Assembly (NCBI GenBank): GCA_029974275.1
Contig: JARKSN010000087.1
Coordinates: forward strand, 1 to 28,327
Length of the DNA: 28,327 bases
Source of the DNA: Candidatus Hydrogenedentota bacterium
Lineage (GTDB): Bacteria > Hydrogenedentota > Hydrogenedentia > Hydrogenedentales > SLHB01
Direction of reading: 5' to 3'
Part shown: piece by piece, positions 1 to 25,307 of the stretch
Layout of the letters: each line of letters opens with the position of its first letter
Position numbering within the stretch: the first letter of the stretch is position 1
Made by a program: the position numbers and the translations under genes
Notes under the pieces: model-generated
The model's input: only the letters and a program-made list of their open reading frames with translations
Told to the model about the DNA's origin: nothing
The model's database searches: none

Positions 1-334
1 AGGACAGGTTCGTCAGCGCATGGAACGCGGAGACGTTGCGTTGGAAGAAGGCCTCGTGCGAATCGTGATGGCGCGCAACGCTGGGTTTCAGTTCGGAAAG
101 GTCGGCTCCCGCCGAGAAGTGCTTGCCCGCGCCCTGCACAATCAAGCCTTCCACCTGCAGACGCGGCAAGACCCGCTCGGTCAGCTCCGCAAAATCGGTG
201 AAGAAGCGCCGGTCCATCATGTTTTCCGGCGGCGCATCGAGGGTGAGATACGCGATTCCCTCGGATTCATCGACGCGAATCGAGTGGCCTCCCTCTGCGC
301 CTTTGGATCTTTGCGTTTCTGCGCTAGAGATCAC
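1..334 (-). CDS. Enoyl-CoA hydratase/isomerase (crotonase) family protein, 5' part only (runs off the window)
   Basis: Not in the ORF track; translated by hand from GTG at 334 after a GAGGAG RBS: MISSAETQ...IAYLTLDAPPENMMD...LIVQGAGKHFSAGADLSEL..., containing the crotonase FSAGADL oxyanion-hole motif. Open to position 2. Confidence 0.85.
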   Translation of the reverse strand, partial: MISSAETQRSKGAEGGHSIRVDESEGIAYLTLDAPPENMMDRRFFTDFAELTERVLPRLQVEGLIVQGAGKHFSAGADLSELKPSVARHHDSHEAFFQRNVSAFHALTNLS

Positions 335-335
335 G

Positions 336-701
336 TCACTCCTCTTGATACACCGCCAAACCATATGCGTGTTGTTTCGTGTGCGCGATGGAAATATGAA
401 GACCGAGTGCCGGCGCACCGCTTTCGTCGTGCCGGCACGGGGGGCATGATATGATAGTGGGCGCTCCGTTGGCCGTATGCGTCAGCACAAAATCGCGCTC
501 GCTCCATTTGCCCAACCCCAACCGCGCGTATAATGTACATAACGCCCGTTTCACTGCCACGAATCCCGCGACGGTCTGCACGTGCCGGTTGGCGGTCGCT
601 TCAATCTCCGCTTCCGTGAGATACTGTGCCTCGAAAAGGTCTCGCTGCGCCGCCACGTCGGCCATTGCGATTCGTTCGACCTGTGAATAGATGCGTCCCA
701 C
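336..701 (-). CDS. AcpS-like (4'-phosphopantetheinyl transferase fold) protein with degenerate motifs
   Basis: YLTEAEI ~ FTxxE; AGFVAVKRAL ~ AGRFAAKEA; NGAPTI ~ G.P; HISIAHT ~ SISH. Lacks the N-terminal GxD and the Glu of KEA. Confidence 0.65.
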   Translation of the reverse strand: MGRIYSQVERIAMADVAAQRDLFEAQYLTEAEIEATANRHVQTVAGFVAVKRALCTLYARLGLGKWSERDFVLTHTANGAPTIISCPPCRHDESGAPALGLHISIAHTKQHAYGLAVYQEE

Positions 702-719
702 GCGGTCGCGTTCCTGACG

Positions 720-1385
720 TTATCGGGTGGCGGCTTCGTCGACGTCCATGGCCTGTTCGACCACTTTGAGGAACAGCTCCGCCTCCTTGCGCAGGGCGTC
801 TTCCCGCGGCAGTTTGCGGGCGTTCCGGATGGACTCCATCACGGCCCGGACTACGCGCGGGGGACGGTTGCCCACCAGCGATTCCAGATAGCGGACCGCC
901 GCCGCGTCGGGATCATCCTCAACCACCTGGTCCACCAACCCCACGGCCAGTGCTTCATCCGCGTCGATGACATGCTCGGAAAGGACAACTTCGGCGAGTG
1001 CCCTGCGCAGTACGTTTTGTTGCGCCAAGACGGCCAAACATGCAGGCGGCAACGACAGGCCTAGTCCCGGCGAACTGAAGGCAACATCACACAAGGCAAT
1101 GCGAAAATGGCATGCCAGCGTCAAACCCGCCGAGGCATGTTGACATGCCCCGCGAATGGACGCCGCGACGGGAACGGTAGCATTGGAGACGAGGTCCCAC
1201 AGCGCTTGGTAGGTCGCCGGGGGATGGAACTCGATATCCGCCGACGGCTCAAAACGAAGCGCCACGCCCTTCAGATCGGCATGCGACAAAACGTGCCGCA
1301 ACAATGACGGCGCGCCCGACCCTCTCAGCAGGTCTGACGCCGCCAAGGTGCAAATGCCATTCGCACTGTCAAAATCGAAACGCAT
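720..1385 (-). CDS. Crotonase-fold protein with degenerate catalytic motifs
   Basis: PVAASIRGAC...LTLACHFRIA and IDADEALAVGLVDQVV match the enoyl-CoA hydratase family; FxAGAD, GGG-E and PE motifs are absent. Confidence 0.75.
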   Translation of the reverse strand: MRFDFDSANGICTLAASDLLRGSGAPSLLRHVLSHADLKGVALRFEPSADIEFHPPATYQALWDLVSNATVPVAASIRGACQHASAGLTLACHFRIALCDVAFSSPGLGLSLPPACLAVLAQQNVLRRALAEVVLSEHVIDADEALAVGLVDQVVEDDPDAAAVRYLESLVGNRPPRVVRAVMESIRNARKLPREDALRKEAELFLKVVEQAMDVDEAATR

Positions 1386-1391
1386 GCATCC

Positions 1392-2498
1392 TCACGTCAT
1401 ATTCCCAAAACGGCGCGCCGGTTGAAAGTAAGGCAGCCGAGTCTCCCGATACAAGCGATCCAACGTCTCGCGTATCCGCTCGCGCCCTTCCGCCTCGACG
1501 ACCTGCGAAAGCCTCTGTTCAGACGCCAGCAGCGCGCCGAGAGACAGGGATAACCCTCTTTCCGTAATCGCGTTACGATCCAAAGCATCATAGCAGGTGT
1601 TCACGAGCAGGTACAAGAAACGCTTCGCGAGCGCAGGAGAATCGTCGTCCGGCGGTGGTGTGATGATCTCTGTAAACAGCGCGCCACAGAGCAAGCCATT
1701 TCCCGTTTTTATGCCGCGTTTTCCCAAGGGCAGGGCACGTTCCAGGCCTTCTAGGAGCGGCGCATAGGGCCAAATTTCGTCATGAGGCATCCGGTCGAGA
1801 TACCGGACCGCCGACGCGTGGATGAGGCCAAGACCAATCGCGTCCATGAGCGAGAGCTGGCCCACCGACGATAGCGGCGAAACCGTAGCTGCGTCGATCA
1901 GCACAGGGTGTATTCCCGACAGCAACAGCCGGAAACACTCCGCGTGAACGGGCAAAAGCAGTCGGTTGACGATGAACGCAGAGTCGTTGTCTTCCTCGAT
2001 GCATTCCAGGCCATTCTCTGCCGCGAAGTCGAGAATGCGCGACCGCCGAGACGCCGGGGCATTGGACGGAACGATAATCTCGGCAAATCGGGTCAGCTCC
2101 AGCGGGTAATAGCAGTGAAAGCCGAGGCAGTCCGGGTGAATCTCCTGCGGCAGGATGGAGGAGGAGTTCGATACGAGGAGCGTGTTGTCCGATACGACGC
2201 CGCGGATCGCATGGAGAAAGGCCTGTTTCGTTGCAATGTCCTCGACGGTGCACTCGATGAGCATGTCGACCGGCTCAGCACGCATATCGGACGCCACGCG
2301 GAACCGCGTCTCCGCCGGGACGAAATCCGGGTCAACCCGCGTGGCCCGGCGCACAGCCTTGCGGAACCAATCTCCGAGCGCAACGAGTCGTTCGTGCGAT
2401 TGCGACGCCCACGTGACGCGGTGGCCTCTGCGCACGAAATAGAAACCGATGTCGCGCGCCATCTTTCCCGAACCGGCAATCAGAATATGCCTGTTCAT
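1392..2498 (-). CDS. 3-hydroxyacyl-CoA dehydrogenase family protein
   Basis: Start moved to ATG 2498 (ATGA overlap with the upstream stop). Rossmann ILIAGSGKMA, IECTVEDIATKQ, SNSSSI, GFH (catalytic His), FAEII and AFIVNRLL. Confidence 0.85.
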   Translation of the reverse strand: MNRHILIAGSGKMARDIGFYFVRRGHRVTWASQSHERLVALGDWFRKAVRRATRVDPDFVPAETRFRVASDMRAEPVDMLIECTVEDIATKQAFLHAIRGVVSDNTLLVSNSSSILPQEIHPDCLGFHCYYPLELTRFAEIIVPSNAPASRRSRILDFAAENGLECIEEDNDSAFIVNRLLLPVHAECFRLLLSGIHPVLIDAATVSPLSSVGQLSLMDAIGLGLIHASAVRYLDRMPHDEIWPYAPLLEGLERALPLGKRGIKTGNGLLCGALFTEIITPPPDDDSPALAKRFLYLLVNTCYDALDRNAITERGLSLSLGALLASEQRLSQVVEAEGRERIRETLDRLYRETRLPYFQPARRFGNMT

Positions 2499-3436
2499 AT
2501 GGCAGCCCGCTGATGCGCGTTCTTGATGTTGATGAAGCGCGGCGCGTCGGGAAGCATGCGTCCATTCTGCGTGAGCGAAATGCCGATGCCGCATTCATAG
2601 GCAGACACAACGTCCTGCGCTATCAACGTCTCCATGACCCGCTGCCAGTTCACGGGCGTGACGATGTTCCGCGCCGTGAAGGGGATCAATTCCTCGGGTT
2701 CGCGCAACGAACGCTGGTCGATGGAGGAGATAATGGGACACCGCGCCGCGCGCCAGGCAAATTGACGTAGCGTGTCTTCGAAGGGCGCGCGAACCTCCTG
2801 CAAAAAAACGGGATGGTGATAGGGCACGGTCACGTCAAGCACGGCAGCCTTGAACGCGCCCCGGGCATCGGCGTCGTCGACAAGGGCCTGAAGCTCGGAG
2901 GTTTTCCCGGAGAGAACGTGCGCGGTCGCGTTGTTCGAGTTGACCAAACAGACGGACGCGTAGTCGCCGTGGCGGAGCATGTCGTCGATTTGTTCCGCGT
3001 CGAAACCGATGACCACGGCCATGCCGCAGGCTTTGTCCACGCATGCAGCTTCCGCGAGGGTGTAGGCCTCCCGAATAATCGCGAGTCCATCGTGAAACGA
3101 TACGGCATCTGCCGCCGCAAAAGCAGAGTAAATGCCGAGACTATACCCGGCCATGAAGTAGGGCCATCCCTTGCTCGACACGAAGACCGCCGCCACGCCG
3201 CACCCGTAGCTGTAGGTCAGCGCCTGCGATTGAAGTTCGGTCAAAGAAGGGTGCGTTTCGTCGGAGATTGCGGCGATCAGGTCGGTCCCGGCAAACGCGG
3301 AACCTTCTTCGAGAAACGGGCGCATCACGCCTTCGTGGCGTTGGAAGAAGTCGCGTTCGCGGCCACACATCTTGACCGCCGCGCCGGGAAAGAGGAATGC
3401 CGATTGCACGTCACCGCCCCTCGCCGACATACTCAA
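2495..3436 (-). CDS. FabD-like ACP S-acyltransferase, atypical
   Basis: AFLFPG, nucleophile motif GYSLG (GxSxG), VPYHHP (catalytic His), PVNWQRVM and YECGIG match the malonyl-CoA:ACP transacylase fold. Confidence 0.85.
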   Translation of the reverse strand: MSMSARGGDVQSAFLFPGAAVKMCGRERDFFQRHEGVMRPFLEEGSAFAGTDLIAAISDETHPSLTELQSQALTYSYGCGVAAVFVSSKGWPYFMAGYSLGIYSAFAAADAVSFHDGLAIIREAYTLAEAACVDKACGMAVVIGFDAEQIDDMLRHGDYASVCLVNSNNATAHVLSGKTSELQALVDDADARGAFKAAVLDVTVPYHHPVFLQEVRAPFEDTLRQFAWRAARCPIISSIDQRSLREPEELIPFTARNIVTPVNWQRVMETLIAQDVVSAYECGIGISLTQNGRMLPDAPRFINIKNAHQRAAI

Positions 3437-4535
3437 TGGAATACCCGGCCTGCATGAACTTGCTGACTTCGGTGACGAAACTCAAAATGCGATCGCCCGA
3501 TTGGAACGCCTCCTCGCGCAGGATTTTGTCGAGGCACACAAAGGCCATCGGCGGGCCGCAATAGCCCAACTGATCGAGGCGCGTGTATAGGGCGTGACGG
3601 GGAATGCCCAACGCTTCACACTCCTCCATGATCGCCTCGACGATGTGCTTGGTGGGCATGTTGAGTTGGAAGTAGCGCACGCGATCGAGCGGGAGATGCG
3701 CCTGTTCGAGCATGCGCGCAAGACCGCTCGTGAACACGGACCGGTCGCCGTCCTGAAAGACATCTGTGGCCAACGCGTTTCGGAAGAGTTGGCGAAGGTG
3801 GTGCGATGCCGTGTCGTATTCGTCGCGCGGGTTCATCCAGTATGCGGGACGTTTGTTGAACATCAGCGACGGGCGTTTGCCGCCAACAGATTCAACGTGC
3901 GTCGCCTCGACGCGAAAGCCTTTGTTGCAGGACGCGTCGCGCGTCAAAACCAACGCGCCCGCGCCGTCGCACAGAAACCACCGTAGGAAAAGCGATTCCT
4001 TGTCCACAAGGGCTTGGTTGTAGTACGCGGCCCGGAGCTCGCTGGACGAGATATTCGACGAGACCACGAGGGCAGTGTGATTATTTCCGTGCTGAAGGAG
4101 TTCGTGTGCGAGATAGAGCGCCTTGTACGCCGAGGTGCAATTGGCGTGGATGGAAAACTCCGTGCAGCGTTCGATGCCCAACCGCTCTTGAATGTGCACG
4201 GACGCCGTCGGCATCTGGTCTTGGTGCGCGGAACCGTAGCAGATGAGGTCGACGTCTTCCGGCTGCATGCCTGCCGTCGCCAAGGCGCGCTTCGCCGCCT
4301 CGACCGACATCGACACGTTGTCATGCGTGAACTCGTGCGTGACCGGATCGAGGGCGTAGTGGACATGCGCGATGTCGAGCAATTCCTTCATCAGCGGCGT
4401 GGTCGTTTTCAGCCACTTCTGAATACGCGGCGGCGCCTCGGTCAACTCGCCCAACATGGAGTCGATTTGATCAAATGGAATCGGCTCGCCCGGCAAAAAC
4501 GCGCCCGTGCCCGCAATGTACACTGGAAATGCCAT
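3411..4535 (-). CDS. KAS III (FabH)-fold ketosynthase, DarB/StlD-like
   Basis: VYIAGTGAFLPG, catalytic Cys in HANCTSAY, and FLRWFLCDGAGA resembling the DarB-type FLRWMLSDGAGA segment as I recall it. Confidence 0.8.
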   Translation of the reverse strand: MAFPVYIAGTGAFLPGEPIPFDQIDSMLGELTEAPPRIQKWLKTTTPLMKELLDIAHVHYALDPVTHEFTHDNVSMSVEAAKRALATAGMQPEDVDLICYGSAHQDQMPTASVHIQERLGIERCTEFSIHANCTSAYKALYLAHELLQHGNNHTALVVSSNISSSELRAAYYNQALVDKESLFLRWFLCDGAGALVLTRDASCNKGFRVEATHVESVGGKRPSLMFNKRPAYWMNPRDEYDTASHHLRQLFRNALATDVFQDGDRSVFTSGLARMLEQAHLPLDRVRYFQLNMPTKHIVEAIMEECEALGIPRHALYTRLDQLGYCGPPMAFVCLDKILREEAFQSGDRILSFVTEVSKFMQAGYSIEYVGEGR

Positions 4536-4557
4536 TGATTAGAAATCCCGACCCCAA

Positions 4558-4623
4558 AAACGCAGCGTTGTGTAGGCGCGATTTGCAATCGGACTATCTT
4601 GATCGCCGCGCAACGCAGTGGTT
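4558..4623. repeat. Imperfect inverted repeat, GTAG-REP-like element in the fabF-KAS III spacer
   Basis: GCGTTG...CAACGC outer stem around GTAGGCGCGATT-TGC-AATCGGACTA. Single copy in the window. Confidence 0.3.
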
Positions 4624-4626
4624 CTC

Positions 4627-4650
4627 AAGAAGTCCCATTACAAAAGGGAC
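4627..4650 (-). terminator. Weak hairpin immediately after the fabF stop
   Basis: Minus strand GTCCC-TTTTGTAAT-GGGAC followed by TTCTT. Confidence 0.3.
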
Positions 4651-5871
4651 CTACATTTTTGAAAAAACGCACACCCCATTATGCCCGCCGAACGCAAACG
4701 AATTCGACATCGCGTGCCGCAGCTCTTTTTGCCGTGCGACGTTGGGCACGTAATCCAAATCGAGTTCCGGATCGGGCGTGCGCAGGTTTGCCGTCGGCGG
4801 CAGAATTCCTGCTTCGATAGCTTTGCAGCACACCACTGCCTCGACGCCCGCCGCGCCCGCGAGACAATGCCCCGTCATGCTCTTCGTCGAGGACACCGCG
4901 AGCGAATAGGCGTGAGCGCCGAACACCTGGCGAATAGCCTCGGTCTCGTAGAGATCGTTGAGGTGCGTCGAGGTGCCGTGGGCGTTGATGTAATCGATCG
5001 ACTCGGGCGCCAACCCGGCGTTCTGCAACGCGCACGACATCGCCTTGGCCATGCCAACGCCCTTGGGTTCGGGCGACACAATGTTGTAGGTCTCGGAGGT
5101 CAACGCGGGCAAATGCAACTCCGCATACACGCGCGCACCGCGACGCTGTGCGGCATCGAGCGTCTCGAGCGCCAGCATGCCGCCGCCTTCGCCCATGACG
5201 AACCCGCTCCGCTCTTTGTCGAACGGACGCGATGCCGTCGCCACGTCCGCGACGGGTTCCGAGAGCGCCATCAACGAGCCGAAACCTTCGACGTCGAGAT
5301 AGTTGATCGACGAATCGCCCGCGCCCGCGATCACCACGTCGCATTGGCCCGTCGCGATCAACATCCACGCGTATGCCAAGGCATAGGCCCCGGACGAACA
5401 CGCGGTGCTCACGACCAGCGACGGTCCGCCAAACTTCTCGCCCAAGCTGACCCATGCCGCAGGCGCATTCGGCATGACCCGAAGAATGCGCTGCGGGTCG
5501 GGCGTTGGTTCGCTCCACGTGTAGCACGTGCCGGTCGAACCCATCACCACGCCCACGCGCGATCGGTCAAGCGGGGCGCCGTCGAAATGGGCGTCTTCGA
5601 TGGCCATCTGCGCGGTGACGACGTTCAGCATGGTTCCGCGTGTCATTTGACTGCGGTGGCGTTTTTTGATGCGGCTCTGGAAAAGTTCGTTCGCGCCGTC
5701 GGGTAGTTCCACTCCAAAGGGGCACGCCAGTCCTTCCGGGTCGAAACTCTTGAAGCGGGCGGTAGGCGTTTCGCCTGCCAGCAACCCGCGCCAACTCGTT
5801 TCCAGGTCGAGCCCCAGCCCCGTCATCAGGCCGAGCCCCGTCACCACGATGCGCGGATTCGCCACGATCAT
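4651..5871 (-). CDS. fabF: Beta-ketoacyl-ACP synthase II (KAS II)
   Basis: RIVVTGLG, STACSSG (Cys), SRPFD..RSGFVMGEG, NAHGTST (His), KSMTGH (His) and SNSFAFGG. ATG 5871 overlaps the thioesterase stop; GTG 5880 is an alternative start. Confidence 0.92.
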   Translation of the reverse strand: MIVANPRIVVTGLGLMTGLGLDLETSWRGLLAGETPTARFKSFDPEGLACPFGVELPDGANELFQSRIKKRHRSQMTRGTMLNVVTAQMAIEDAHFDGAPLDRSRVGVVMGSTGTCYTWSEPTPDPQRILRVMPNAPAAWVSLGEKFGGPSLVVSTACSSGAYALAYAWMLIATGQCDVVIAGAGDSSINYLDVEGFGSLMALSEPVADVATASRPFDKERSGFVMGEGGGMLALETLDAAQRRGARVYAELHLPALTSETYNIVSPEPKGVGMAKAMSCALQNAGLAPESIDYINAHGTSTHLNDLYETEAIRQVFGAHAYSLAVSSTKSMTGHCLAGAAGVEAVVCCKAIEAGILPPTANLRTPDPELDLDYVPNVARQKELRHAMSNSFAFGGHNGVCVFSKM

Positions 5872-6278
5872 GGCTTCCACCGTTCAAAGGCCTCTTGAAA
5901 GGCATCAGGCGCTTCCACGGCGCGTTGTTGTTGGCGGTCGAAGAAGACGATCTCCGTCTTCGCGCGCAATAGTGTATCGCCGTCACGTTGGATACGGCAT
6001 TGCAGCGTCAACCGGAAACCATCAAAGGCCACAGGGCGGACGTGGACTTGCAGTGCGTCCATAAACCGCGCGGGTTTGCGAAAATGAAGCCGCATATCAT
6101 AGAGCACCGGCACGGCATCGCTGCCGTTGATGTCGAATCCTAGACGGGTAATGAATCGTACCCGCGCGCGTTCGAGATACGCCACGAGTTTCGTGTGGTG
6201 AACGATGCCGTAGGAATCGACGTCCTCGAACTCCGCTGTGATGTTCAGCGTAAATCCTGCGTTTGCTGCGTCGTTCAT
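5868..6278 (-). CDS. Acyl-CoA/ACP thioesterase, 4HBT/YbgC hot-dog family
   Basis: FEDVDSYGIVHH...YLERAR and FRKPARFMD. Start moved to ATG 6278 (ATGA overlap). Confidence 0.88.
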   Translation of the reverse strand: MNDAANAGFTLNITAEFEDVDSYGIVHHTKLVAYLERARVRFITRLGFDINGSDAVPVLYDMRLHFRKPARFMDALQVHVRPVAFDGFRLTLQCRIQRDGDTLLRAKTEIVFFDRQQQRAVEAPDAFQEAFERWKP

Positions 6279-6688
6279 GCGTTCGCGCTCCCAGTGAACA
6301 CGTGCACCTCCGCGACGCACTCGCGCCATGGCGTCCAGCGCAGCCGCACCGCAGTGTCCGCGATAGTGTATTGCGCGCGAAGCGTGGCGGAGAGGTGCAG
6401 GCGGGGAGCGTCGTCTTCCCACTCCGCGAGCAGTTCGCATTCGGTGAAGGTATACGGCGCAGACAGCGCTTTATACAACGCCTCTTTACAACAGAATGCC
6501 GCGCAGAAACCAGCGGCGGGCCAAGGCAGGGAGCGGTCATGAGCGATTTCGCGATCGGAATACACAAACGGCCAAGGACGCGCGCCGTCGGCGAATTTCT
6601 GGAAGCGATCGAGTTGTTCCGCGTCGATTCCGCATCCGGCGAGCCGCAACGGCGCCTCAGATGTCCACGTTGAGAATGCCGTTGCCAT
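6275..6688 (-). CDS. AcpS-type holo-ACP synthase (4'-phosphopantetheinyl transferase)
   Basis: GCGIDAE, VYSDREI and AAFCCKEALYKAL; directly downstream of the ACP gene. The true start may be TTG 6649. Confidence 0.8.
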   Translation of the reverse strand: MATAFSTWTSEAPLRLAGCGIDAEQLDRFQKFADGARPWPFVYSDREIAHDRSLPWPAAGFCAAFCCKEALYKALSAPYTFTECELLAEWEDDAPRLHLSATLRAQYTIADTAVRLRWTPWRECVAEVHVFTGSANA

Positions 6689-6965
6689 GTTTCACAATAG
6701 CGTTCGTCAGGACGATGATGTCCCCGATCGTGTTGGCGGGTTTCTTCATGAGGCGCCTGCCCAGCGCCTTCAACTCGATGGTGAGGCCGAAGGTCTTGCA
6801 CACGCTCTCCAACAACGCCAACAACATCAACGAGTCTCCCTCGAGTTCCTCGATGATGTTGGTTTGGTCCGTGATGCTGTCCCTGTCCACCTCGCACTCA
6901 TCGGCAAAGAAGTCATAGACCAAGTCCCGGACCTGACGTTCGGTGTCACTCTCGACGGGCGCCAT
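6657..6965 (-). CDS. Acyl carrier protein
   Basis: Acidic 102-aa protein with EELEGDSLMLLALLE (phosphopantetheine Ser in DSL) and TIGDII; purine-rich RBS (GAGGAGAAGGGG) upstream. Confidence 0.88.
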   Translation of the reverse strand: MAPVESDTERQVRDLVYDFFADECEVDRDSITDQTNIIEELEGDSLMLLALLESVCKTFGLTIELKALGRRLMKKPANTIGDIIVLTNAIVKHGNGILNVDI

Positions 6966-7066: not shown

Positions 7067-9382
7067 TCATTGCAACACGACGCGCCCGGTCTGTGGCATA
7101 GACGTGGACGGTGCATCGCCCAACTGTTCGCGGCGTTTTGCGAGGTCGTCGGCGGTTGCGCCGCGTCGTTCGGCTTCCGCAAGGCAACTGCGCGCGACAT
7201 CGAGTCGCTTTGCCGTCAATGCCAAGTCGCATTGTTTCAACCACGGAACGGGATCGTCGGGGCGCTCATCGGCAGCCTGTCGATAGAGATCCGCCGCCAA
7301 TTGCGGTTGGTGGAACTCGACCGCCGCATCGCCCAACACGACGAGGGGGTGTGCTACGCCGGCCGCCACGGCTCCCGGACTCTCCAGATACGCCTGCGCC
7401 TCCTGCCACATGCCTTCCGCCGCGCATTGGCGCGCGAGAAGCGTCCACGATTCAGGCGCAGCGGCGGCAGGCGCGTCGATCGACTGTTTCTGGAAACTTT
7501 CCGCCTGCCTCATCCGCGCACGAACATAGCCCAGCAGCGCCCACGCCGCTCGATTCGCCGGGTCCAATTCCATGAAATCCTGCAGCGTGAAGGCGGCCTG
7601 CATGTAGCGTCCCCGCATGGCGAGAATCTGTGCGAGAAGAAACGCTCCCTCGGGCGTCGGCGCCTTGTGTTGAAATTCGGCGAAACGTTTCTCGAGCAAC
7701 GCCACTTGTTCCGCGCGTTTGGAAAGCTGCTGCAACAGCGGCGCGTAGGGCGAGTCCTTCGCATCGCCGATGGCCTGTTTCAACAACGGCAGCGCGGCAT
7801 CGTAGTCGCCTATTTCGACAAGCGCGATCGCATACATCCCGGACGCCTCGCGCGAAATCGGGCCCAAGGACGTCGCGTATCGGTAGTAATCCATGGCGCG
7901 ATGGATATCATCGCGATGGCCCTGGGCGCGACTGCGAACCTGGTGGAGCCGCGCCAATTCGAGGGCGGCGTCTTGGTTGGACTCGTCCGATCTCAACGCG
8001 TCTTCCTGATGCGCCATGGCTTCCTCGGACTGGCCCAGCAACCGTTGCGCAGTCCCCAACGCAGAAAGCGTCCGCGACGTGCGTGCGCCGCCCTTGACCG
8101 CATCGAGCAAATGCGACTCGGCGTCGCGCAGCGTCGAAAGACGGGCGTCTTTTGCGAAATCGATATTTGGCTGATTCGCCAGTTGTTCCGCCGCCGGGCG
8201 CGCCTCTGCCAATAGCATCAACCCGATCTGCTCGTGCGCGACGGCATAATCCGGGCGCTTGTCCAGCGTATCGCTCCACAACGCCATCGGGTCTTGCCAC
8301 AGCTGATTGCGCTGAAACGTCGCCACACCCGCCGCGCCCAACAACGCCACGGCCGCAAGTCCCGCCGCCACCCGCACCGCCGCAATCTTCGGCAACGCCT
8401 GCACCGCCCACGGCAACACAAGCGCTGCGCCTGCAGACGGAAAATACGCCCCATTTTGCCGCGCGCCTTCGTCCGACAATGCCAATGCCGTTCCCGGAAA
8501 ATCTCTCACAATCGCCAGCGCATTGGATGGCGCATCCCAGTAGGAACGGAAAATATCCGCGGTAAATGCGTGCCCGGACGCCCGCCATGCCACGACGCCC
8601 GCGATCAACACGCCCCAATAGGCGACAAGTGGACGCACGCGCGACCCCAGGCCGTTCCTGCCCCAAACGACCCAGTCTACAACCGCCGCCAGAAGGGGAA
8701 ACGCCCAGGCCGCTTTCGTGCAGGCGCATGCCAAAAGAAAGCTCAACAACGATAGAACGAATCCGAGCGGCCGCAACGCCGCATTTCCGTTGTTCACGGA
8801 ATGCACATAGAGAAGAAGACTGAGCAAGACAAAAAACGTGGCCAAAACGGTCCCTCGCGGCAGAATCGCGTTGACACTCTGCGACGCAATAGGGTTGAGC
8901 ACGAACAACAGACCGGCGAGCATCGCAATGGCCTCGTGCGTCTGGCCGCGCAGCAGGCGGCGAGCAAGAAGGTAGACCAACACGCCGTTGAGAATGTGGA
9001 CAAGCGCATTGACAACGGCGAACCCTGCGGCGTTGTTGGGCGTGACGATCCAGTTCAGGCCGAAGGTCAGCGCGATCAGGCGCGACACGCCCAGCGCGGC
9101 GGCGGCGTTCCAGGCAGACGTGAAGCGGTGCGCCTCTGGGGTGTCGCGAAGAACATCGCTCACCTCTCCGATAAACAACACGCCCCACGCCGTCGAATAA
9201 ACAATCGCGCCCGCCATCGCGATCAGGAAGGCGCCTATCCACACCTGGGCTACGTCGATGCCGCGATCGCCTTTGAGGACCGGCTCAGACAGCCGTTGAT
9301 CCAGCTTTTCGTCGCCGGTGCTTTCCTCGCACGCCGGACTTTCCCTCGTTGTTTCTGGATGTGCGTTTTCGTTCACGAACAC
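7067..9382 (-). CDS. TMTC-like multi-pass membrane protein with C-terminal TPR repeats
   Basis: N-terminal TM helices with NALVHILNGVLVYLL, LFVLNPIASQSVN and TFQRNQLWQDPMALWSDTL, typical of TMTC/GT-C proteins, followed by multiple TPR-like helical repeats. Confidence 0.8.
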   Translation of the reverse strand: MFVNENAHPETTRESPACEESTGDEKLDQRLSEPVLKGDRGIDVAQVWIGAFLIAMAGAIVYSTAWGVLFIGEVSDVLRDTPEAHRFTSAWNAAAALGVSRLIALTFGLNWIVTPNNAAGFAVVNALVHILNGVLVYLLARRLLRGQTHEAIAMLAGLLFVLNPIASQSVNAILPRGTVLATFFVLLSLLLYVHSVNNGNAALRPLGFVLSLLSFLLACACTKAAWAFPLLAAVVDWVVWGRNGLGSRVRPLVAYWGVLIAGVVAWRASGHAFTADIFRSYWDAPSNALAIVRDFPGTALALSDEGARQNGAYFPSAGAALVLPWAVQALPKIAAVRVAAGLAAVALLGAAGVATFQRNQLWQDPMALWSDTLDKRPDYAVAHEQIGLMLLAEARPAAEQLANQPNIDFAKDARLSTLRDAESHLLDAVKGGARTSRTLSALGTAQRLLGQSEEAMAHQEDALRSDESNQDAALELARLHQVRSRAQGHRDDIHRAMDYYRYATSLGPISREASGMYAIALVEIGDYDAALPLLKQAIGDAKDSPYAPLLQQLSKRAEQVALLEKRFAEFQHKAPTPEGAFLLAQILAMRGRYMQAAFTLQDFMELDPANRAAWALLGYVRARMRQAESFQKQSIDAPAAAAPESWTLLARQCAAEGMWQEAQAYLESPGAVAAGVAHPLVVLGDAAVEFHQPQLAADLYRQAADERPDDPVPWLKQCDLALTAKRLDVARSCLAEAERRGATADDLAKRREQLGDAPSTSMPQTGRVVLQ

Positions 9383-9598: not shown

Positions 9599-10828
9599 CT
9601 AGAGCGTCACGTAGCCAGGTCCGAGCGATTGCCTGGGCTTGGCGGCGAATTCGAGTTTGAGCACGCAGATTCCGGCCGCCTTGTCGGGACATGTCCTCGG
9701 AAGGCCTTTGAGGATGATGCGGTTCTTTTCCTGGATAAACGAAATCGGCTTGCCGCCGGCCAGGAACGACGCCTTCAGGAGCCTGGTGCGCATGCCGCCA
9801 ATGGCCAGTTCGGACCCGGGCCAGCGCGAACACCAATAGTAGGCAGTCTTTCCCTTAAGCGTCCAGAACCCCGTCAGCATGCCCTCGAGCGCGCCCTCCG
9901 TGCGGTCGCAGGCGCCGTACACCGCCTCGCCGTTCGCGGCCAACCATTTTCCTGTCGCGGTCAGACGTTCGATGGCCTCGGCAGGCAGGGAGCCATCGGG
10001 CAGCGGGCCGACATTCAGGAGAAGATTGCCGCCATCTCCGGTGCACTGGCGCAACATGCGCAGCACGGCGCGGGTGGAGTGCCAGTCCTCCGGCGGCGCG
10101 GGTTGCCACCCCCAGGCGCCGTTGAAAGTCATGCAGGCTTCCCATGCGCGCCCGGCCTTTTCCGCGGCGATGTTCTCCTCGGGGGTGCCAAAATCCTCAT
10201 CGAGCAAGGATCGGTTGTTGATGAGAATGTCCGGCTGGAGCGAACGCGCCATCGCGTTCATCTTCGCGCTTTCCCACTTCTCCGGCGTGTCCAACGGCCA
10301 AGCCACGTCGTACCACAGAATATCGATCTTGCCGTAGCGGGTCATGAGTTCCTGCACAAGGCCATGGGTGTAGTCGACAAAACGCCGGCGCGCCTTCTCG
10401 TCCTTCGCACAACGCGCCCCGTCGGGGTGGCGCCAATCCATCAGCGAATAATAGAAGCCCACGCGCAGTCCTTCCGCGCGGCAAGCATCGACGTATTCCG
10501 CGACCAAATCGCGCTTGGGGCCTTGTGCGGCGGCGTTGTAGTCCGTCAATTTGCTGTTCCACAGACAAAAACCTTCGTGATGCTTGGTTGTCATGACCAT
10601 GTACTTCATGCCCGCTTTCTTGGCGAGCTTGGCCCATTCCCGCGCCGGACACGGCTTTGGCTTCCAACTGGCCGCCAGCTTCTCGTACTCGGGGATCGGG
10701 ATGCGCTCCCGGTTCATGACCCACTCGTGCCGCCCCAGTTGCGAATACAGACCCCAGTGAATGAACATCCCGAACCGTGCGTCATGCCACCACTTCATCC
10801 GCTTCGCTCGTGTCTTGTCCGCGTCCAT
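9599..10828 (-). CDS. Alpha-L-fucosidase, GH29 (no signal peptide)
   Basis: WWHDARFGMFIHWG, TTKHHEGFCLW, YYSLMDW, ILWYD (nucleophile), GGNLLLNVGP and GEAVYG; GGAGG RBS. Confidence 0.93.
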   Translation of the reverse strand: MDADKTRAKRMKWWHDARFGMFIHWGLYSQLGRHEWVMNRERIPIPEYEKLAASWKPKPCPAREWAKLAKKAGMKYMVMTTKHHEGFCLWNSKLTDYNAAAQGPKRDLVAEYVDACRAEGLRVGFYYSLMDWRHPDGARCAKDEKARRRFVDYTHGLVQELMTRYGKIDILWYDVAWPLDTPEKWESAKMNAMARSLQPDILINNRSLLDEDFGTPEENIAAEKAGRAWEACMTFNGAWGWQPAPPEDWHSTRAVLRMLRQCTGDGGNLLLNVGPLPDGSLPAEAIERLTATGKWLAANGEAVYGACDRTEGALEGMLTGFWTLKGKTAYYWCSRWPGSELAIGGMRTRLLKASFLAGGKPISFIQEKNRIILKGLPRTCPDKAAGICVLKLEFAAKPRQSLGPGYVTL

Positions 10829-15379: not shown

Positions 15380-16347
15380 TCCACCCGTCCGTGCAGCAGC
15401 AGTTGCGCCGCGACGTCGAGGCCTTGGCCTTGCCGGCGGGGCGGGCCGTCGCTTCGGCGGGGCACGACGCGGCGCGGGCATACATCGTCGAACGGCTGCG
15501 GACGCTAGGCCTTTCGCCGTATCGCAACGCTTCCTTCGAATTGCCATATTCGATGGAGGGCGGCGATTTCGTCAACATCGCGGCGTGCCGCCCGGGCAAA
15601 GCCCCGGAGCTTCCGCCGCTGCTTGTCTATGCGCATTACGACACGTGCGGCGAGCAGCCGGGCGCCGACGACAACGCCGCCGCCGTGGCCATTGCCTTGT
15701 GCGTGGCTGAGCGAATGATCGCGGCGCCCGGACGCAGGAATGTCGTCTTTTGCTTCGCCGACGCCGAGGAACCGCCGCATTTTCTAACCCCTTCCATGGG
15801 CTCCATCTATTTCTACGAGCGCCAGCGGCTGACAGACTTCCATTGCGCGATCGCGATGGACCTTGTCGGGCACGACGTCCCCGTCGCGGGATTGGAGGAG
15901 GCGCTCTTTATCGCCGGCATGGAGAGCGACCCGGGACTGGAACAGGCAATCGTGCAGTGTGCGCCGCCCGCGGGATTGGATCCGCTGCCCACGCTGACGC
16001 GTTATATCGGCGATTTGAGCGATTACGCCGTCCATCGCCGCGAAAAAAAGCCCTACCTTTTTTTGACGTGCGCCCATTGGGAGCATTACCACGAACCGAC
16101 CGATACGCCGGACCTCCTTAACTACGCCAAGATGGAGGCGATCGCGACGTATCTGCTGTCCTTGTTGCATTTTCTCGACACGCAGCCCCTGGAGGGGCCC
16201 TTTGAAGGCTACGACACGACCTCCACGGAATTGGCCTTCATGCGGCGATCCGTGGGGCCGATCGTCGAGAGCTTGGGCATGCGCCTGAACGACCGATCGG
16301 ACATCGATTCCCTGGCGGCGCTCATGCTGCACGTGTTTGGACTATAG
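15376..16347 (+). CDS. M28 family metallopeptidase
   Basis: AHYDT, GADDNA, DAEEP, MDLVG, SDY and [11 protein letters not shown] 15376 overlaps the upstream TGA. Confidence 0.88.
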
Positions 16348-17346
16348 AACCTTGCCGGACGCCTTTTCCTGCTCGGCCCGCTTCACATCGGCGTCCACCA
16401 TGAGCCGCACCAGTTGCCGAAACGTCGTTCGAGACTCCCACCCCAACTGCCGCTTGGCCTTGCTTGCGTCGCCCACGAGCAAGTCCACCTCGCTAGGACG
16501 ACAATAACGGGGATCCTTCTCGACATATTCACGGTAATCCAGGTCGAGGTACGAGAAGGCCTCGTCCAAAAACTCGCGGACCGTGTGGCTCTCGCCCGTA
16601 GCGAGCACATAATCCTCTGGGCCATCCTGCTGCAACATGCGCCACATGCCTTCGACATATTCCTTGGCGTATCCCCAATCGCGCCGCGCATCGAGATTGC
16701 CCAGATAGACCTTCCGCTGCAACCCCAGCTTGATGCGCGCGGCGGCGGTCGTGATCTTGCGCGTCACAAAGGTTTCGCCCCGGCGCGGTGATTCGTGATT
16801 GAACAAAATGCCGTTGCAGGCGTACATGCCATAGGCTTCGCGATAGTTCACGGCCGCCCAATAGGCAAAGACCTTAGCCACGCCGTAGGGACTGCGCGGA
16901 TGAAACGACGTCGTCTCGGTTTGCGGAACTTCCCGCACCAACCCATACATTTCACTGCTGGACGCCTGATAATAGCGCACCGGCGCGCCGCTATGGCGGA
17001 TGGCCTCCAACATGCGGATCGCGCCCACCGCCACAATGTCCGCCGTGTATTCCGGAATGTCGAAACTGACGCGAACATGGCTTTGTGCCCCAAGGTTATA
17101 CACCTCGTCCGGTTGCACGCGGTTGATAATTTGACCCAGCGCCGCCGAATCGCTGAGATCGCCGTACATAAGGTTCAAGCGACGTTTTTCGACATGCGGA
17201 TCCTCGTAGATGTGATCGATCCGCCCCGTATTGAACGAACTTGACCGGCGGATGAGCCCGTACACTTCATAGCCCTTCTCGAGCAGCAGTTCCGCCAAGT
17301 ACGATCCATCCTGCCCCGTGATGCCGGTGATCAGCGCCTTTTTCAC
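16342..17346 (-). CDS. gmd: GDP-mannose 4,6-dehydratase
   Basis: [54 protein letters not shown] and [11 protein letters not shown]. Confidence 0.97.
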
Positions 17347-17519: not shown

Positions 17520-18914
17520 TCAGCGCAAGACAAGCTGACCTTGACGCGCATAGTCGAGCGCGAGCAAAAGAATGCGCGCGGCCTCTTGCGGCGCGTGGAA
17601 CCCGGATGAATTCTCCGCCTCGACGAAATCAAGAAGAAATTGCGCCTTACGCTGCAGGGCGCACGCGTCAGCCAACGGCGTTTCCGCAGCGCCGGCGGCG
17701 CGTGCGGCCTTGATTTCGCCGATCAAGGCGACGACCGCATCCATGACGCGATCGCGCATCTCCATTGTGCGCCCCTGGATTGTTTCCACGCGGCTCTTCA
17801 ACTCTTCCTCCGGAAATTTGTGGCAGGTCTGACACGCGTTGTTGATGTGCAGCACCGGGCTCTGGATGTGGTGATCGCTGATTTTGAGCGCGCCCACGCG
17901 TTTGTACGGCATGTGGCAGTCGGCGCAAGCGACGCCCGAGCGCGCGTGCACGCCCTGACTCCACATCTCGAATTCAGGATGTTGCGCTTTCAACGCCGAC
18001 GCGCCGGTGTCGGCGTGGATCCAATCCTTGTGACCGTTTTCCTCATAGTAGGCGAGAATATCATCTCCCTTGAGCCCTTTTGTCCAAGGATAGACCAAGC
18101 GCTTCTCAGGCCCCTGGAAATAATACTCGACGTGGCACTGGCCACAGACAAAAGAACGCATCTCCTGGCGCGTGGCCATCACGTTGGGATCGTAATCGGA
18201 AACGCCCTGGGCGGCCTTGGCGGCGCGGATGCCCTCCAGAAAACCGGGGCGCGTAATGCGCAGCTGCATGGTCTGCGCATCGTGACAATCGATGCAGGTC
18301 ACGGGATGCGTCACCAGTTCTCGGGCTTCCGCATACGGCATCTGGTTCATCTTCTCGAACCCCTTGACGATGTCGCCGTCGCCGAGTTTCTTGTAGGGGA
18401 CATACACCGACGCGTGGCAGTGCATGCACGTGCCGGGCTGCTTGGCGGCCTGTTGGCGTTCGGTGTAGGTCTGATCTTCAAGCATGTACGCATGGCCACG
18501 TTCCTCGCGAAAATCCTTGGCGAAGGCATACCCCGCCCAGAGGGTTTTCAGACGAGGGTCCTCTTCGAGTTTCGATTGCGCCACCACCGATCGCGGGTCG
18601 GCCTCGGTCGGCGTGCGCGGCATGGCCTCGCTGCCGCCGTAGCGAGTGCGGGCCATATCGGCCGTGCGCAAATACGCGTCGTATTGCAGCGGAAAATTCT
18701 TGCCCCACACGGCGGGATCCTCGGTGTCGTCGGTCAAATCGACCACCCGGAAAAAGGGATTGCGCGCCTCCTGCTTGTGCTCAAAAATGTTCACCAACAG
18801 CGCCGCAACCCCAAACGTCGCCACCGCCGAAAACAAGGCCGCGGCGACCAGTAAGGCGACAAATCCCCGAAGCGACTTCCTCTGCGTTTCCGTCGACTGA
18901 TTACGGGCGATCAT
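17520..18914 (-). CDS. nrfA: Ammonia-forming cytochrome c nitrite reductase catalytic subunit (CXXCH-type heme 1)
   Basis: Five heme motifs (CMHCH, CIDCH, CGQCH, CADCH, CQTCH); LWAGYAF..DFREERGH, CHVEYYF, KAQHPEFE and GFHAPQE; N-terminal TM helix. Confidence 0.95.
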   Translation of the reverse strand: MIARNQSTETQRKSLRGFVALLVAAALFSAVATFGVAALLVNIFEHKQEARNPFFRVVDLTDDTEDPAVWGKNFPLQYDAYLRTADMARTRYGGSEAMPRTPTEADPRSVVAQSKLEEDPRLKTLWAGYAFAKDFREERGHAYMLEDQTYTERQQAAKQPGTCMHCHASVYVPYKKLGDGDIVKGFEKMNQMPYAEARELVTHPVTCIDCHDAQTMQLRITRPGFLEGIRAAKAAQGVSDYDPNVMATRQEMRSFVCGQCHVEYYFQGPEKRLVYPWTKGLKGDDILAYYEENGHKDWIHADTGASALKAQHPEFEMWSQGVHARSGVACADCHMPYKRVGALKISDHHIQSPVLHINNACQTCHKFPEEELKSRVETIQGRTMEMRDRVMDAVVALIGEIKAARAAGAAETPLADACALQRKAQFLLDFVEAENSSGFHAPQEAARILLLALDYARQGQLVLR

Positions 18915-19968: not shown

Positions 19969-20721
19969 ATGCTGCAAGGACTCTACGCGGCGGCGAACGG
20001 CTTGGTCTCCGAAGAAGCGCGGCAGGCCGTTATCGCCAACAACATCGCAAACGTCTTCACCGCGGGATTCAAACGCCAGGAACCGGTGCAGCAAGGTTTT
20101 TACAGCGTCTTCCGCGACTCCATGAGCGTCGCGCGCCTGAACGCGGAACGATCGCCGGGCGGCGGAGTCAAACTGGTCGAAACCTATACCGATCCGGCAG
20201 AAGGAACCGTCACCACCACAGGCAACAACCTCGATATCGCCTTGTCAGGCCCCGGATATCTTGTCGTGGACACGCCCCAGGGCGAACGCTTCACCCGTGC
20301 CGGAAAATTCATGATCGACAGCGACGGGCAACTGGCAAACGATGCGGGACACAAGGTGCAAGGAACCGGCGGCCCCATCGACGTGCGCGGAGGCGCCGTG
20401 CAGTTTGACGGAACCGGCCGGGTGATTGTAGACGGCGCGCCGGTCGGAACGCTCCGCCTTGTCGAATTCGAGGACCCGCGCATGCTGACGCGCGAAGGCA
20501 ATACGCTGTTCGCCGCCTCGCAAGCGGCGATGGACCGATCGGCCCCGGCGGACCAAACCCGGGTGGCGGCAGGATCGCTGGAAATGTCCAACGTTCAACT
20601 GCCGCACGAGATGATTGGCATGACGCTGGGATTGCGCGCCTATTCGGCGAACCAGCGGGTCATCAGCGCGTTTGACGAAACCTTGGGCAATTTGATCGAA
20701 CGGGTGGGCATGCCGATCTAG
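19969..20721 (+). CDS. flgF: Flagellar basal-body rod protein FlgF
   Basis: GLYAAANGL..IANNIANV.TAGFK, TGNNLDIALSGPGY, FTRAG.F and GSLEMSNV; precedes flgG. Confidence 0.88.
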   Translation: MLQGLYAAANGLVSEEARQAVIANNIANVFTAGFKRQEPVQQGFYSVFRDSMSVARLNAERSPGGGVKLVETYTDPAEGTVTTTGNNLDIALSGPGYLVVDTPQGERFTRAGKFMIDSDGQLANDAGHKVQGTGGPIDVRGGAVQFDGTGRVIVDGAPVGTLRLVEFEDPRMLTREGNTLFAASQAAMDRSAPADQTRVAAGSLEMSNVQLPHEMIGMTLGLRAYSANQRVISAFDETLGNLIERVGMPI

Positions 20722-20750
20722 TTATCGGCGCACATGGGGAGCGGAAACGT

Positions 20751-21542
20751 ATGATACGCGCACTGTTTACGGCGGCGACGGGAATGATCGCGCAGCAATT
20801 GAACATCGACACGATCGCCCACAACATGGCGAACGTGAACACCACCGGCTTCAAAAAAAGCAGGGTGAACTTTCAAGACCTCATCTACGAGACGATCAAA
20901 CCCGCAGGCTCCGAAACGGCCGCCGGCCAAACCATTCCGGAAGGAATCCAGGTAGGACACGGCGTGCGCCCCGCTTCGATCGCCAAACTGTTTTCGCCCG
21001 GCAATTACATTCAAACCGGCAATCCCCTCGACCTCGTGATCGAAGGCGACGGCTTCTTTCAGGTGACCCTGCCCGACGGAACCATCGGCTACACGCGCGA
21101 CGGCAATTTCAAGCTCGATGCGAACGGGCAGATCGTTTCGACGGATGGTTATCCGCTGCAGCCGGGCATCACCGTGCCGAACAACGCCCTCAGCGTGAAC
21201 ATCGGATCGGACGGCACCGTATCCGCGATGGTCCAAGGCAACGCCGCCCCGCAAAACCTGGGAACCATCCAATTGGTGCGATTCGTGAACCCCGCAGGCC
21301 TCGACGCGCGGCTGGGACGCAACATCCTGTTGGAAACCCAGGCCTCGGGCGCGCCGATCGCCGGACAACCGGGCCTCGATGGCCTGGGCACGCTCGAAAA
21401 CGGCTTTCTCGAAAACTCGAACGTCCAAGTCGTGGAGGAAATCCTGAATCTCATCATCGCGCAACGCGCGTACGAGGCCAGTTCGAAGGTCATTCAAACC
21501 TCCGACGAAATGCTGCAAACCGCAAACAACGTGCGACGGTGA
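20751..21542 (+). CDS. flgG: Flagellar basal-body distal rod protein FlgG
   Basis: MIRALFTAATGM.AQQ, NTTGFKKSRVNFQDL.Y, GIQVG.GV and AQRAYEA.SKVIQTSDEML. Confidence 0.96.
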   Translation: MIRALFTAATGMIAQQLNIDTIAHNMANVNTTGFKKSRVNFQDLIYETIKPAGSETAAGQTIPEGIQVGHGVRPASIAKLFSPGNYIQTGNPLDLVIEGDGFFQVTLPDGTIGYTRDGNFKLDANGQIVSTDGYPLQPGITVPNNALSVNIGSDGTVSAMVQGNAAPQNLGTIQLVRFVNPAGLDARLGRNILLETQASGAPIAGQPGLDGLGTLENGFLENSNVQVVEEILNLIIAQRAYEASSKVIQTSDEMLQTANNVRR

Positions 21543-21564
21543 TAGGCCCCAGGAGACGTAATTC

Positions 21565-22542: not shown

Positions 22543-22554
22543 GGAGAAACGACT

Positions 22555-23193: not shown

Positions 23194-23224
23194 ACGGCGC
23201 GGGCAATATGCCAAGGGGGTATTC

Positions 23225-24759: not shown

Positions 24760-24796
24760 CAGGCGGGCGATGCCGCGAAACTACAAGAGGTTCTAC

Positions 24797-25300: not shown

Positions 25301-25307
25301 CACCGGC

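Follow-up and report, generated by a model that had tools for sequence, protein, structure and literature searches.

Background

In the DarABC and StlCDE pathways, according to the portions available to us of two papers (PMC6836626, PMC13748660), homologues of DarB and StlD join a beta-keto thioester to an alpha,beta-unsaturated acyl thioester to give carboxy-cyclohexanediones, and DarA and StlC aromatise these condensation products. Dialkylresorcinols and cyclohexanediones, the products of these systems, serve as signals, antioxidants and pigment anchors. Here we describe an operon of 11 genes in a Candidatus Hydrogenedentota bacterium whose central condensing enzyme is related to DarB and StlD. 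Ten of the genes lie at one end of contig JARKSN010000087.1 (assembly GCA_029974275.1; C84 in our numbering), which was analysed over its entire length of 28,327 nucleotides and is called the window below. The eleventh, encoding a B12-binding radical S-adenosylmethionine (SAM) enzyme, lies on another contig of the same genome (C125), and the full set spans about 9 kb.

We give a probability of roughly 40% to the reading that this operon is a horizontally mobile, self-contained module, which would build a specialised lipid or a small polyketide through a DarB-like head-to-head condensation, with tailoring by the radical SAM enzyme. This reading was chosen because the operon enzymes are predicted to yield 3-oxoacyl and 2-enoyl thioesters, the substrate classes of DarB and StlD. 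Like the DarB/StlD pathways, the operon has a dedicated acyl carrier protein (ACP), and its condensing enzyme has StlD as closest solved relative and NF005293 as closest curated family. Its ketosynthase (KS), 3-hydroxyacyl-CoA dehydrogenase (HAD) and crotonase could make the two thioesters that, in the available text of the papers cited, DarB and StlD join (PMC6836626, PMC13748660). It differs from these pathways in its built-in substrate supply, its radical SAM enzyme, its two AcpS-like proteins and the absence of a recognised aromatase, and in its hosts, which are mostly uncultured anaerobes.

A condensing enzyme with an altered active site

The central enzyme has the thiolase fold and is called KAS III-like here, after beta-ketoacyl-ACP synthase III. 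Residues 4-363 align with residues 24-395 of the StlD chain in PDB entry 5GK0 (E = 1.3e-16), the N-terminal extension included, and NF005293, the StlD/DarB model, is matched over profile positions 1-371 of 378. The scores are nevertheless far below the cut-offs of these families (133.4 bits vs 450 for NF005293, 93.4 vs 550 for the DarB model NF053539), and no protein anywhere in the genome exceeds either of them. The FabH model TIGR00747 gives 79.6 bits, its cut-off being 292.1; a FabH-like gene distinct from this one is present on contig C61 of the same genome.

Here and below, catalytic positions were read from alignments of orthologues in loci fetched from other genomes. Among 81 aligned KAS III-like orthologues, including that of the window, Cys133 is kept in every one. 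The other two members of the StlD/DarB triad are replaced without exception: Asn292 stands at the position of the StlD histidine and Tyr325 at that of the StlD asparagine (81/81 in both cases). Asn292 aligns with the very histidine that is an alanine in PDB entry 5GK2. Three histidines, His245, His246 and His297, are invariant in the same 81 sequences. A wider HMMER search, over 1.84 billion representatives, returned 1325 proteins at E <= 0.001, of which 43 full-length matches were aligned with the window protein. In the 13 relatives that are about 30-58% identical to it, the cysteine (12/13), a GY.G motif (12/13) and the His-His pair (13/13) persist, and the StlD-type histidine is absent throughout (13/13). 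One row at 27% identity deviates, with Asp in place of Cys and His in place of Tyr; Cys-His-Asn sequences, with the DarB/StlD-like PH.SS and GNTG motifs, appear only from 28% identity downward. Since the residues are invariant in 81 of 81 orthologues and the Cys/GY.G/His-His pattern holds down to about 30% identity, the altered site is a conserved alternative and not the outcome of decay.

Judged by score and by triad, the enzyme is a sister of StlD and DarB and not a member of their family. It probably represents a catalytic solution not yet described in the thiolase fold: in conservation it ranks near the top of the set, yet two of the three residues regarded as essential in the closest characterised relatives are missing. 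The best 120 of 1291 proteins retrieved at E <= 0.001 are 62-100% identical to it and about 370 residues long, and matches in the ESM Atlas belong only to generic "3-oxoacyl-ACP synthase III" clusters.

The carrier protein and the proposed enzymes of substrate supply

The serine of the ACP is retained in all 50 aligned orthologues, the window protein among them, and the thioesterase retains the Asp of its DxD motif in 17 of 17 sequences. The phosphopantetheinyl transferase PPT1 keeps in 23 of 23 sequences the Asp, Glu and Lys of its GxD and KEAxxK motifs, which we take to be the magnesium-binding and catalytic residues of AcpS, and is probably an active AcpS-type transferase. The second AcpS-like protein, PPT2, is of another kind. 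A profile of 14 orthologues matches Bacillus subtilis AcpS (1F7L) with an E-value of 3.3e-11, and the position of the glutamate is occupied by Arg, Lys, Gln or Gly in 18 of 19 sequences and by Glu in one; the N-terminal Asp motif remained unaligned. PPT2 is thus probably a degenerate AcpS fold, devoid of the magnesium-binding glutamate and non-catalytic. The two proteins do not appear to be recent duplicates, because a profile-profile comparison between them gave a probability of just 9.7%.

The triad of the FabF-like KS is intact (Cys 66/66, His 66/66, and a second His 63/66, the remaining three being gaps), and with 389 bits against NF005589, whose cut-off is 387, the KS is the one operon protein that reaches an NCBIfam cut-off, that of a generic FabF subfamily. 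The acyltransferase (AT) finds its best PDB matches among FabD structures (E = 2.9e-23) and retains Ser and His in 56 of 56 sequences. The position of FabD Arg117, presumably the residue that binds malonyl, is an alanine in 55 of the 56, and the glutamine of the GQGSQ motif, to whose role as well as to this residue numbering the same presumption applies, is found in none (0/56). On these residues the AT is unlikely to be a malonyl transferase; it scores 135.7 bits against the 260.9 that TIGR00128 demands.

The HAD carries the catalytic residues of a 3-hydroxyacyl-CoA dehydrogenase (His 64/64, Glu 64/64, Asn 63/64, Ser/Thr 63/64), alignable to solved HADs, together with the Rossmann GxGxxG/A motif, and scores below the cut-off of every curated equivalog. 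A preference for NADPH, considered because the second Rossmann strand ends in a non-acidic residue, was dropped, the N-terminal part being unaligned to solved structures. For this enzyme and for the crotonases, the roles of the catalytic residues are those we presume, mapped through the alignments.

The Glu/Glu pair is present in 133 of 137 aligned crotonases of the module. The second crotonase, ECH2, has both glutamates of an enoyl-CoA hydratase, on the piece encoded by C125. The first, ECH1, has glycine at both positions in the window and is, on this evidence, catalytically degenerate in the source genome. Glutamate loss with the gene kept is also seen in ECH1 of three other loci (L016, L027 and L031, from two Fibrobacterota metagenome-assembled genomes (MAGs) and an unclassified one). 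Because the losses amount to at least three independent events on the KAS III tree, each with the gene kept, catalysis by ECH1 seems to be repeatedly dispensable even though the gene persists. PPT2 and, in the source genome, ECH1 are probably non-catalytic partner subunits.

An original prediction, made from the window alone, had listed PPT2 as a second transferase-like gene, ECH1 as a crotonase and the AT as atypical. The AT is indeed a FabD fold stripped of its malonyl-binding arginine; for PPT2 and for ECH1 of the source genome the folds stand and the catalytic glutamates do not. The same prediction had the pathway equipped with its own ACP and AcpS-type transferase, which agrees with the intact residues of PPT1, and had beta-oxidation-type HAD and crotonase working in place of FabG and FabZ. 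Indeed, in searches with Pfam and NCBIfam profiles, no FabG, FabZ, enoyl reductase or acyl-CoA dehydrogenase was found among the operon genes and their two flanks; the partners of type II fatty acid synthesis (FAS II), namely FabG, FabZ/FabA and FabI/K, are all missing from operon and flanks, and neither a thiolase nor an acyl-CoA ligase is encoded in the operon. Because FabG, FabZ, enoyl reductase, acyl-CoA dehydrogenase and thiolase are missing from it, the operon would support neither FAS II nor a closed reverse-beta-oxidation cycle, and because there is no enoyl reductase the chemistry would halt at the 3-oxo and 2-enoyl levels.

This bears directly on the function that had first been proposed, either elongation of ACP-bound chains by reverse beta-oxidation or the feeding of CoA-processed starter units onto the ACP; in the second case, as we frame it, the KAS III-like enzyme would do the priming, for the housekeeping fatty acid synthase. 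The intact catalytic residues of HAD and ECH2, the dedicated ACP and transferase and an AT predicted to transfer non-malonyl acyl groups would all suit such a function. A cycle without thiolase, enoyl reductase or acyl-CoA dehydrogenase cannot close, however, and the KAS III-like enzyme cannot act as a normal primer: the His and Asn of decarboxylative priming are absent in 81 of 81 sequences, and the fabH score is far under the cut-off. We therefore consider both versions unlikely.

In composition (ACP, AT, KS, a thiolase-fold enzyme and a pair of crotonases) the operon also parallels the HMG-CoA synthase cassettes (PksCFGHI/AcpK, CurA-F) that add a branch to a beta-keto intermediate, as in bacillaene and curacin. 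In these cassettes the KSs are Cys-to-Ser decarboxylases, and the decarboxylase-type crotonase lacks the hydratase Glu pair. The operon KS keeps its cysteine in 66 of 66 sequences, whereas the crotonases of both types are of the hydratase kind, to judge from the Glu pair in 133 of 137. The KAS III-like enzyme is no HMG-CoA synthase either, as it reaches 34 bits against the 360 of TIGR01835, over residues 69-168 only. HAD and radical SAM enzyme come in addition, and there is no assembly line on which a cassette could act. A beta-branching role is for these reasons very improbable.

Least probable of all is a catabolic or remodelling module that would oxidise an unusual 3-hydroxy or unsaturated lipid in the beta-oxidation direction. 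HAD, crotonase and YbgC-type thioesterase (TE) are families typical of degradation. Against this, a dedicated ACP, its transferase, an elongating KS with intact triad and an acyltransferase are hallmarks of biosynthesis, and the acyl-CoA ligase, acyl-CoA dehydrogenase and thiolase of a degradative pathway are not encoded.

The radical SAM enzyme and the missing end of the operon

The window ends within ECH2. In related loci, the second crotonase is followed by a gene of 446 codons with B12-binding and radical SAM domains, and its orthologue in the source genome (52% identity) lies at the extreme end of C125. There, the C-terminal 108 residues of ECH2, with both catalytic glutamates (in GFELAL and LPETQ), overlap the start of the radical SAM gene. 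The crotonase halves of C84 and C125 match the orthologue of another locus (L025), which we read as one gene from which about 8 codons are absent at the contig junction. Beyond the radical SAM gene come a gap and a gene for a peptidase M6-like protein. No fabG, fabZ or darA is found among the genes at this end of the operon; the original prediction, which could not include the eleventh member, had held that their presence there would turn the cluster into a known type.

The B12-binding domain and the CxxxCxxC core identify the C125 protein, at the level of sequence, as a class B radical SAM enzyme; the eight most frequent forms of this motif, which account for 32 of the 40 aligned sequences, all conform to CxxxCxxC. 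The closest curated families, the lipid methylase HpnR (148.7 bits, cut-off 650) and BchE (136.1 bits), are both far under cut-off. In a search of PDB, only distant class B radical SAM enzymes were retrieved (9CCB at E = 5.1e-11, then TokK and OxsB), and these matches are uninformative on the reaction.

An ACP, a FabF-like KS and a B12-binding radical SAM enzyme are also brought together in the "ladderane-type" FAS II clusters of anammox bacteria and Desulfotalea, as described in the available part of Rattray et al. 2009 (PMC2649909). Phytoene-desaturase-like genes occur in those clusters and a CrtI-like flavoenzyme in the Desulfocapsaceae and other loci of the present module, and neither system has an agreed product. 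On the other hand, the available text of that paper contains no enoyl-CoA or hydroxyacyl-CoA enzymes and presents FabH only as a housekeeping enzyme (PMC2649909), and the operon radical SAM enzyme scores 21-25 bits on TIGR04072, whose cut-off is 360. A full-text search of the literature yielded no description of the 11-gene set. The headings of a 2026 review on radical SAM enzymes that modify lipids, the part of it that was available, run through Tes, Mss, Gms, Grs, Gmm, Cds, HpnH/J/P/R, Jaw5 and ladderane candidates and include nothing that resembles the module, and the clusters described in the accessible part of the Pelobacter genome paper are other ones.

Distribution and probable horizontal transfer

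The Genome Taxonomy Database (GTDB) was scanned, one genome per species, with two conserved peptides. The scan gave 267 matches, 252 of which held up in tblastn; the locus-level counts given here refer to the best 80, which were fetched and many of which are cut by contig ends. The titles of all 80 denote MAGs or uncultured bacteria. The module is thus present in at least 252 species-level genomes of many phyla, nearly all uncultured, and no paper, product or activity is tied to it. The conservation of the gene set in the 252 confirmed loci bears out the synteny that the original prediction had expected.

When the loci were searched with the window proteins (tblastn and blastp), a common order emerged: ACP-PPT1-(TE or CrtI-like)-KS-KAS III-AT-HAD-ECH1-PPT2-ECH2-radical SAM. 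This colinear layout occurs in Myxococcota, Fibrobacterota, Desulfocapsaceae (Desulfobacterota), Kiritimatiellia, Rokubacteriota, Calditrichaceae and one Spirochaetales MAG, and the same genes are found rearranged in Spirochaetota/Leptospirales and in Bacteroidales. The KAS III-like gene is present in all 80 loci, a crotonase in 71, the KS in 68, the HAD in 67, the AT in 57, the ACP in 49, the 446-residue radical SAM protein in 39, PPT1 in 22 and PPT2 in 18. The TE is recognised in 16 loci, a figure that is too low, since in the other two layouts the TE has diverged beyond the reach of the query. A second B12-binding radical SAM protein, of 500-545 residues, is found in 17 loci, and some loci carry up to three such enzymes. 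In a sub-variant of the colinear layout, a flavoenzyme of the CrtI/phytoene-desaturase family takes the place of the TE, often with an extra 545-residue B12-binding radical SAM protein with a DUF4070 domain encoded upstream of the ACP (examples at L040:4674-6311 and L040:7265-8749; homologues in L015, L023, L024, L033, L036, L045 and L079).

In a FastTree phylogeny of the KAS III-like proteins, the colinear layout forms a single clade (support 98) in which phyla are intermixed. The closest protein on the tree, at 69% identity, belongs to a Kiritimatiellia MAG. In a search of 40 genomes from the family and order of the host, the KAS III query gave matches of FabH level only (the best, E = 2.2e-15, has 29% identity over residues 75-352), with no sign of the module. 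Because a single clade mixes phyla and the kin genomes give nothing beyond FabH-level matches, the operon behaves, on this phylogenetic evidence, as a horizontally moving unit.

The layout also departs, as had been predicted, from those of aryl polyene, canonical DarABC, ole and pfa clusters. With aryl polyene and flexirubin clusters the module shares a dependence on ACP, a make-up of discrete enzymes and the lack of an enoyl reductase. In Bacteroidales loci only, it is embedded among genes for KS/chain-length-factor (CLF)-like, FabA-like, deacetylase and GT2-DUF2062 proteins, neighbours of the kind shared with such clusters, and the source genome has KS, CLF and LolA-like pieces on contigs other than that of the operon. 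The window operon nevertheless stands alone, has no CLF, and uses HAD and crotonase where those clusters use a ketoreductase of the short-chain dehydrogenase/reductase type and a hot-dog dehydratase.

These neighbours raise the question of an iterative synthase of polyenes or other unsaturated chains, in which HAD would serve as ketoreductase and crotonase as dehydratase, cycling with the KS to a polyenoyl-ACP, the KAS III-like enzyme, reduced to its cysteine, would act as an acyltransferase or off-loader, one or more radical SAM enzymes would methylate the chain and the TE would release it. The absence of an enoyl reductase from the operon, the CrtI-like desaturase that stands in for the TE in 9 of 80 loci and the aryl polyene/flexirubin-like surroundings in Bacteroidales all speak for such a scheme, and KAS III-fold acyltransferases devoid of the standard triad, such as CerJ and DpsC, do exist. 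The colinear operon has, however, a single KS with no CLF partner, and we found no precedent for HAD and crotonase in the ketoreductase and dehydratase roles on ACP substrates. Moreover, an off-loader sits badly with the degree of conservation: across phyla the KAS III-like protein is 57-70% identical, as against 25-45% for AT and HAD, which makes it the most conserved member of the set, and its alignment with StlD, a ring-forming enzyme, is full-length. A polyene synthase is in our view possible but rather unlikely.

Proposed pathway

In the DarB-like scheme that we favour, the ACP would be activated by PPT1, and the arginine-less AT would load it with an ordinary, non-malonyl acyl starter. 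The FabF-like KS would extend this starter with malonyl-ACP to a 3-oxoacyl thioester, part of which HAD and crotonase(s) would convert, through the (S)-3-hydroxyacyl intermediate, into a 2-enoyl thioester. A HAD-fold enzyme working on carrier-protein thioesters beside a dedicated ACP has a precedent in FkbK, ZmaG and ClbD, which belong to the HAD family and use substrates bound to ACP in the formation of methoxymalonyl- and aminomalonyl-ACP; those systems differ from the operon in their FkbH-type loading and acyl-CoA-dehydrogenase-like partner, neither of which it has. The StlD/DarB sister enzyme would then couple two chains head-to-head on Cys133, with His245-His246, His297 and Tyr325 substituting for the missing His and Asn, and give a cyclic dione or a related branched compound. 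The radical SAM enzyme would tailor this product, most likely by C-methylation, alternatively by an oxygen-independent oxidation or aromatisation, and the hot-dog TE would release it.

Several points weigh seriously against this scheme. Two of the three StlD/DarB triad positions fail, so that the chemistry of the condensing enzyme may differ altogether. A DarA/StlC-type aromatase was not recognised, the 11 operon genes and 2 flanks all belonging to other families, although no DarA model was included in the searches. Because the AT has no malonyl-binding arginine, the operon depends on an outside supply of the malonyl donor used by the KS. HAD and crotonases may act on either ACP or CoA thioesters; the reaction type of the radical SAM enzyme is a guess, as its HpnR and BchE scores lie well under the cut-offs; and a simple DarB scheme leaves without explanation the two crotonases, PPT2, and the extra B12-binding radical SAM enzymes and the CrtI-like flavoenzyme of other loci.

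A more specific and more speculative proposal, which we think unlikely as it stands, is that anaerobic diderm bacteria have here an oxygen-independent route to lipids of the cyclohexanedione or resorcinol type, or to other head-to-head condensed lipids. The Cys/His-His/Tyr family would replace DarB, KS, HAD and crotonase would supply both substrates on a private ACP, and the radical SAM enzyme would take over the tailoring or aromatisation left elsewhere to DarA. If such an anaerobic counterpart exists, it would be relevant to microbial chemical ecology and to the interpretation of orphan lipid biomarkers, and, in sediments, digesters and wetlands, unusual lipids would have a widespread and as yet unassigned origin in the module.

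Gene arrangement

The ten genes of the window are co-oriented on the minus strand, occupy positions 2-6965 and were assigned by Pfam and NCBIfam profile searches (Table 1). As the original prediction had noted, they are tightly packed. ORF coordinates, translations and the DNA agree on ATGA overlaps between PPT1 and TE (6275-6278) and between AT and HAD (2495-2498); the gap between PPT2 and ECH2 is 1 nt, those around ECH1 are 6 and 18 nt, and the sole sizeable one, of 115 nt, separates KS and KAS III. The TE (E = 4.6e-20 with TIGR02799, under cut-off) probably starts at the ATG at 6278, which gives about 136 residues and overlaps the stop of PPT1, and the HAD at the ATG at 2498 (368 residues), which overlaps the stop of the AT. 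The start of ECH2 is probably the GTG at 334, 1 nt past the stop of PPT2. G+C is even along the window (0.58-0.64). The arrangement is far beyond chance, and the identical order recurs in other phyla.

The operon is flanked in the genome by a gene for a tetratricopeptide repeat (TPR) membrane protein on one side and by the peptidase gene on the other. The TPR protein (771 residues), encoded upstream of the ACP in the same orientation, has an N-terminal multi-pass membrane region, C-terminal TPR repeats and a weak PrsT-like match. Because tblastn with it finds nothing in the 80 related loci, it is regarded as a neighbour and not as a member of the cluster.

Table 1. Features of the operon, of its end on C125 and of the remainder of the window
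Feature	Location	Coordinates	Strand	Evidence
ACP, dedicated acyl carrier protein, 102 aa	window	6657..6965	-	Pfam PP-binding E 4.4e-8; Ser in DSL motif
PPT1, AcpS-type 4'-phosphopantetheinyl transferase, 137 aa	window	6275..6688	-	Pfam ACPS E 3.3e-9
TE, YbgC/4HBT hot-dog thioesterase	window	5868..6440	-	4HBT_2 E 1.6e-19 (residues 71-185, long ORF)
KS, FabF-like elongating beta-ketoacyl-ACP synthase	window	4651..5880	-	fabF TIGR03150 E 1.2e-120
KAS III-like, StlD/DarB-sister thiolase-fold enzyme, 374 aa	window	3411..4535	-	NF005293 E 9.9e-39
AT, FabD-fold acyltransferase	window	2495..3436	-	fabD TIGR00128 E 2.1e-39, under cut-off
HAD, 3-hydroxyacyl-CoA dehydrogenase family	window	1392..2594	-	3HCDH_N E 1.5e-14; 3HCDH E 6.7e-7
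ECH1, crotonase-fold protein, 221 aa	window	720..1385	-	ECH_1 E 2.8e-15, residues 57-212 only
PPT2, AcpS-fold protein, 121 aa	window	336..701	-	acpS TIGR00516 E 2.3e-5; Pfam: no match
ECH2, crotonase, N-terminal 111 codons, cut by contig end	window	2..334	-	ECH_1 E 5.4e-7
ECH2, C-terminal 108 residues	C125 (L093)	2798-3124	-	
B12-binding radical SAM enzyme, 443 aa	C125 (L093)	1486-2817	-	Pfam B12-binding E 5.7e-18; Radical_SAM E 2.8e-13
TPR membrane protein, 771 aa	window	7067-9382	-	TPR_14 E 2.8e-10
Alpha-L-fucosidase	window	9599-10828	-	
GDP-mannose 4,6-dehydratase	window	16342-17346	-	
Cytochrome c552 (NrfA-type nitrite reductase)	window	17520-18914	-	PF02335 E 2e-133
Flagellar block	window	19969-26219	+	
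ORF of 252 aa inside the flagellar block, no family assignment	window	22470-23228		

Host genome context

Other contigs of the genome hold further condensing and radical SAM enzymes: a B12-binding radical SAM enzyme with KS, CLF-like and LolA-like genes (C336:1-7100), three KS genes with a SPASM radical SAM gene (C257:10200-17300), two KS genes with a 4HBT gene and a polyketide synthase-type dehydratase (C2:1-4230), and three matches to B12-binding radical SAM enzymes (C122). In the remainder of the window, the NrfA-type gene suggests nitrite ammonification in the source organism. The flagellar block comprises two FlgF/G-type rod proteins, FlgA, FlgI, a rod-binding protein, FlgN and a flagellin-family protein; the host is taken to be diderm because a P-ring gene is present. 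To the alpha-L-fucosidase and GDP-mannose 4,6-dehydratase of the window, C257 and C336 add another fucosidase, a sulfatase and an FG-GAP protein, a set of genes that recalls polysaccharide-degrading bacteria of the Planctomycetes-Verrucomicrobia-Chlamydiae (PVC) group.

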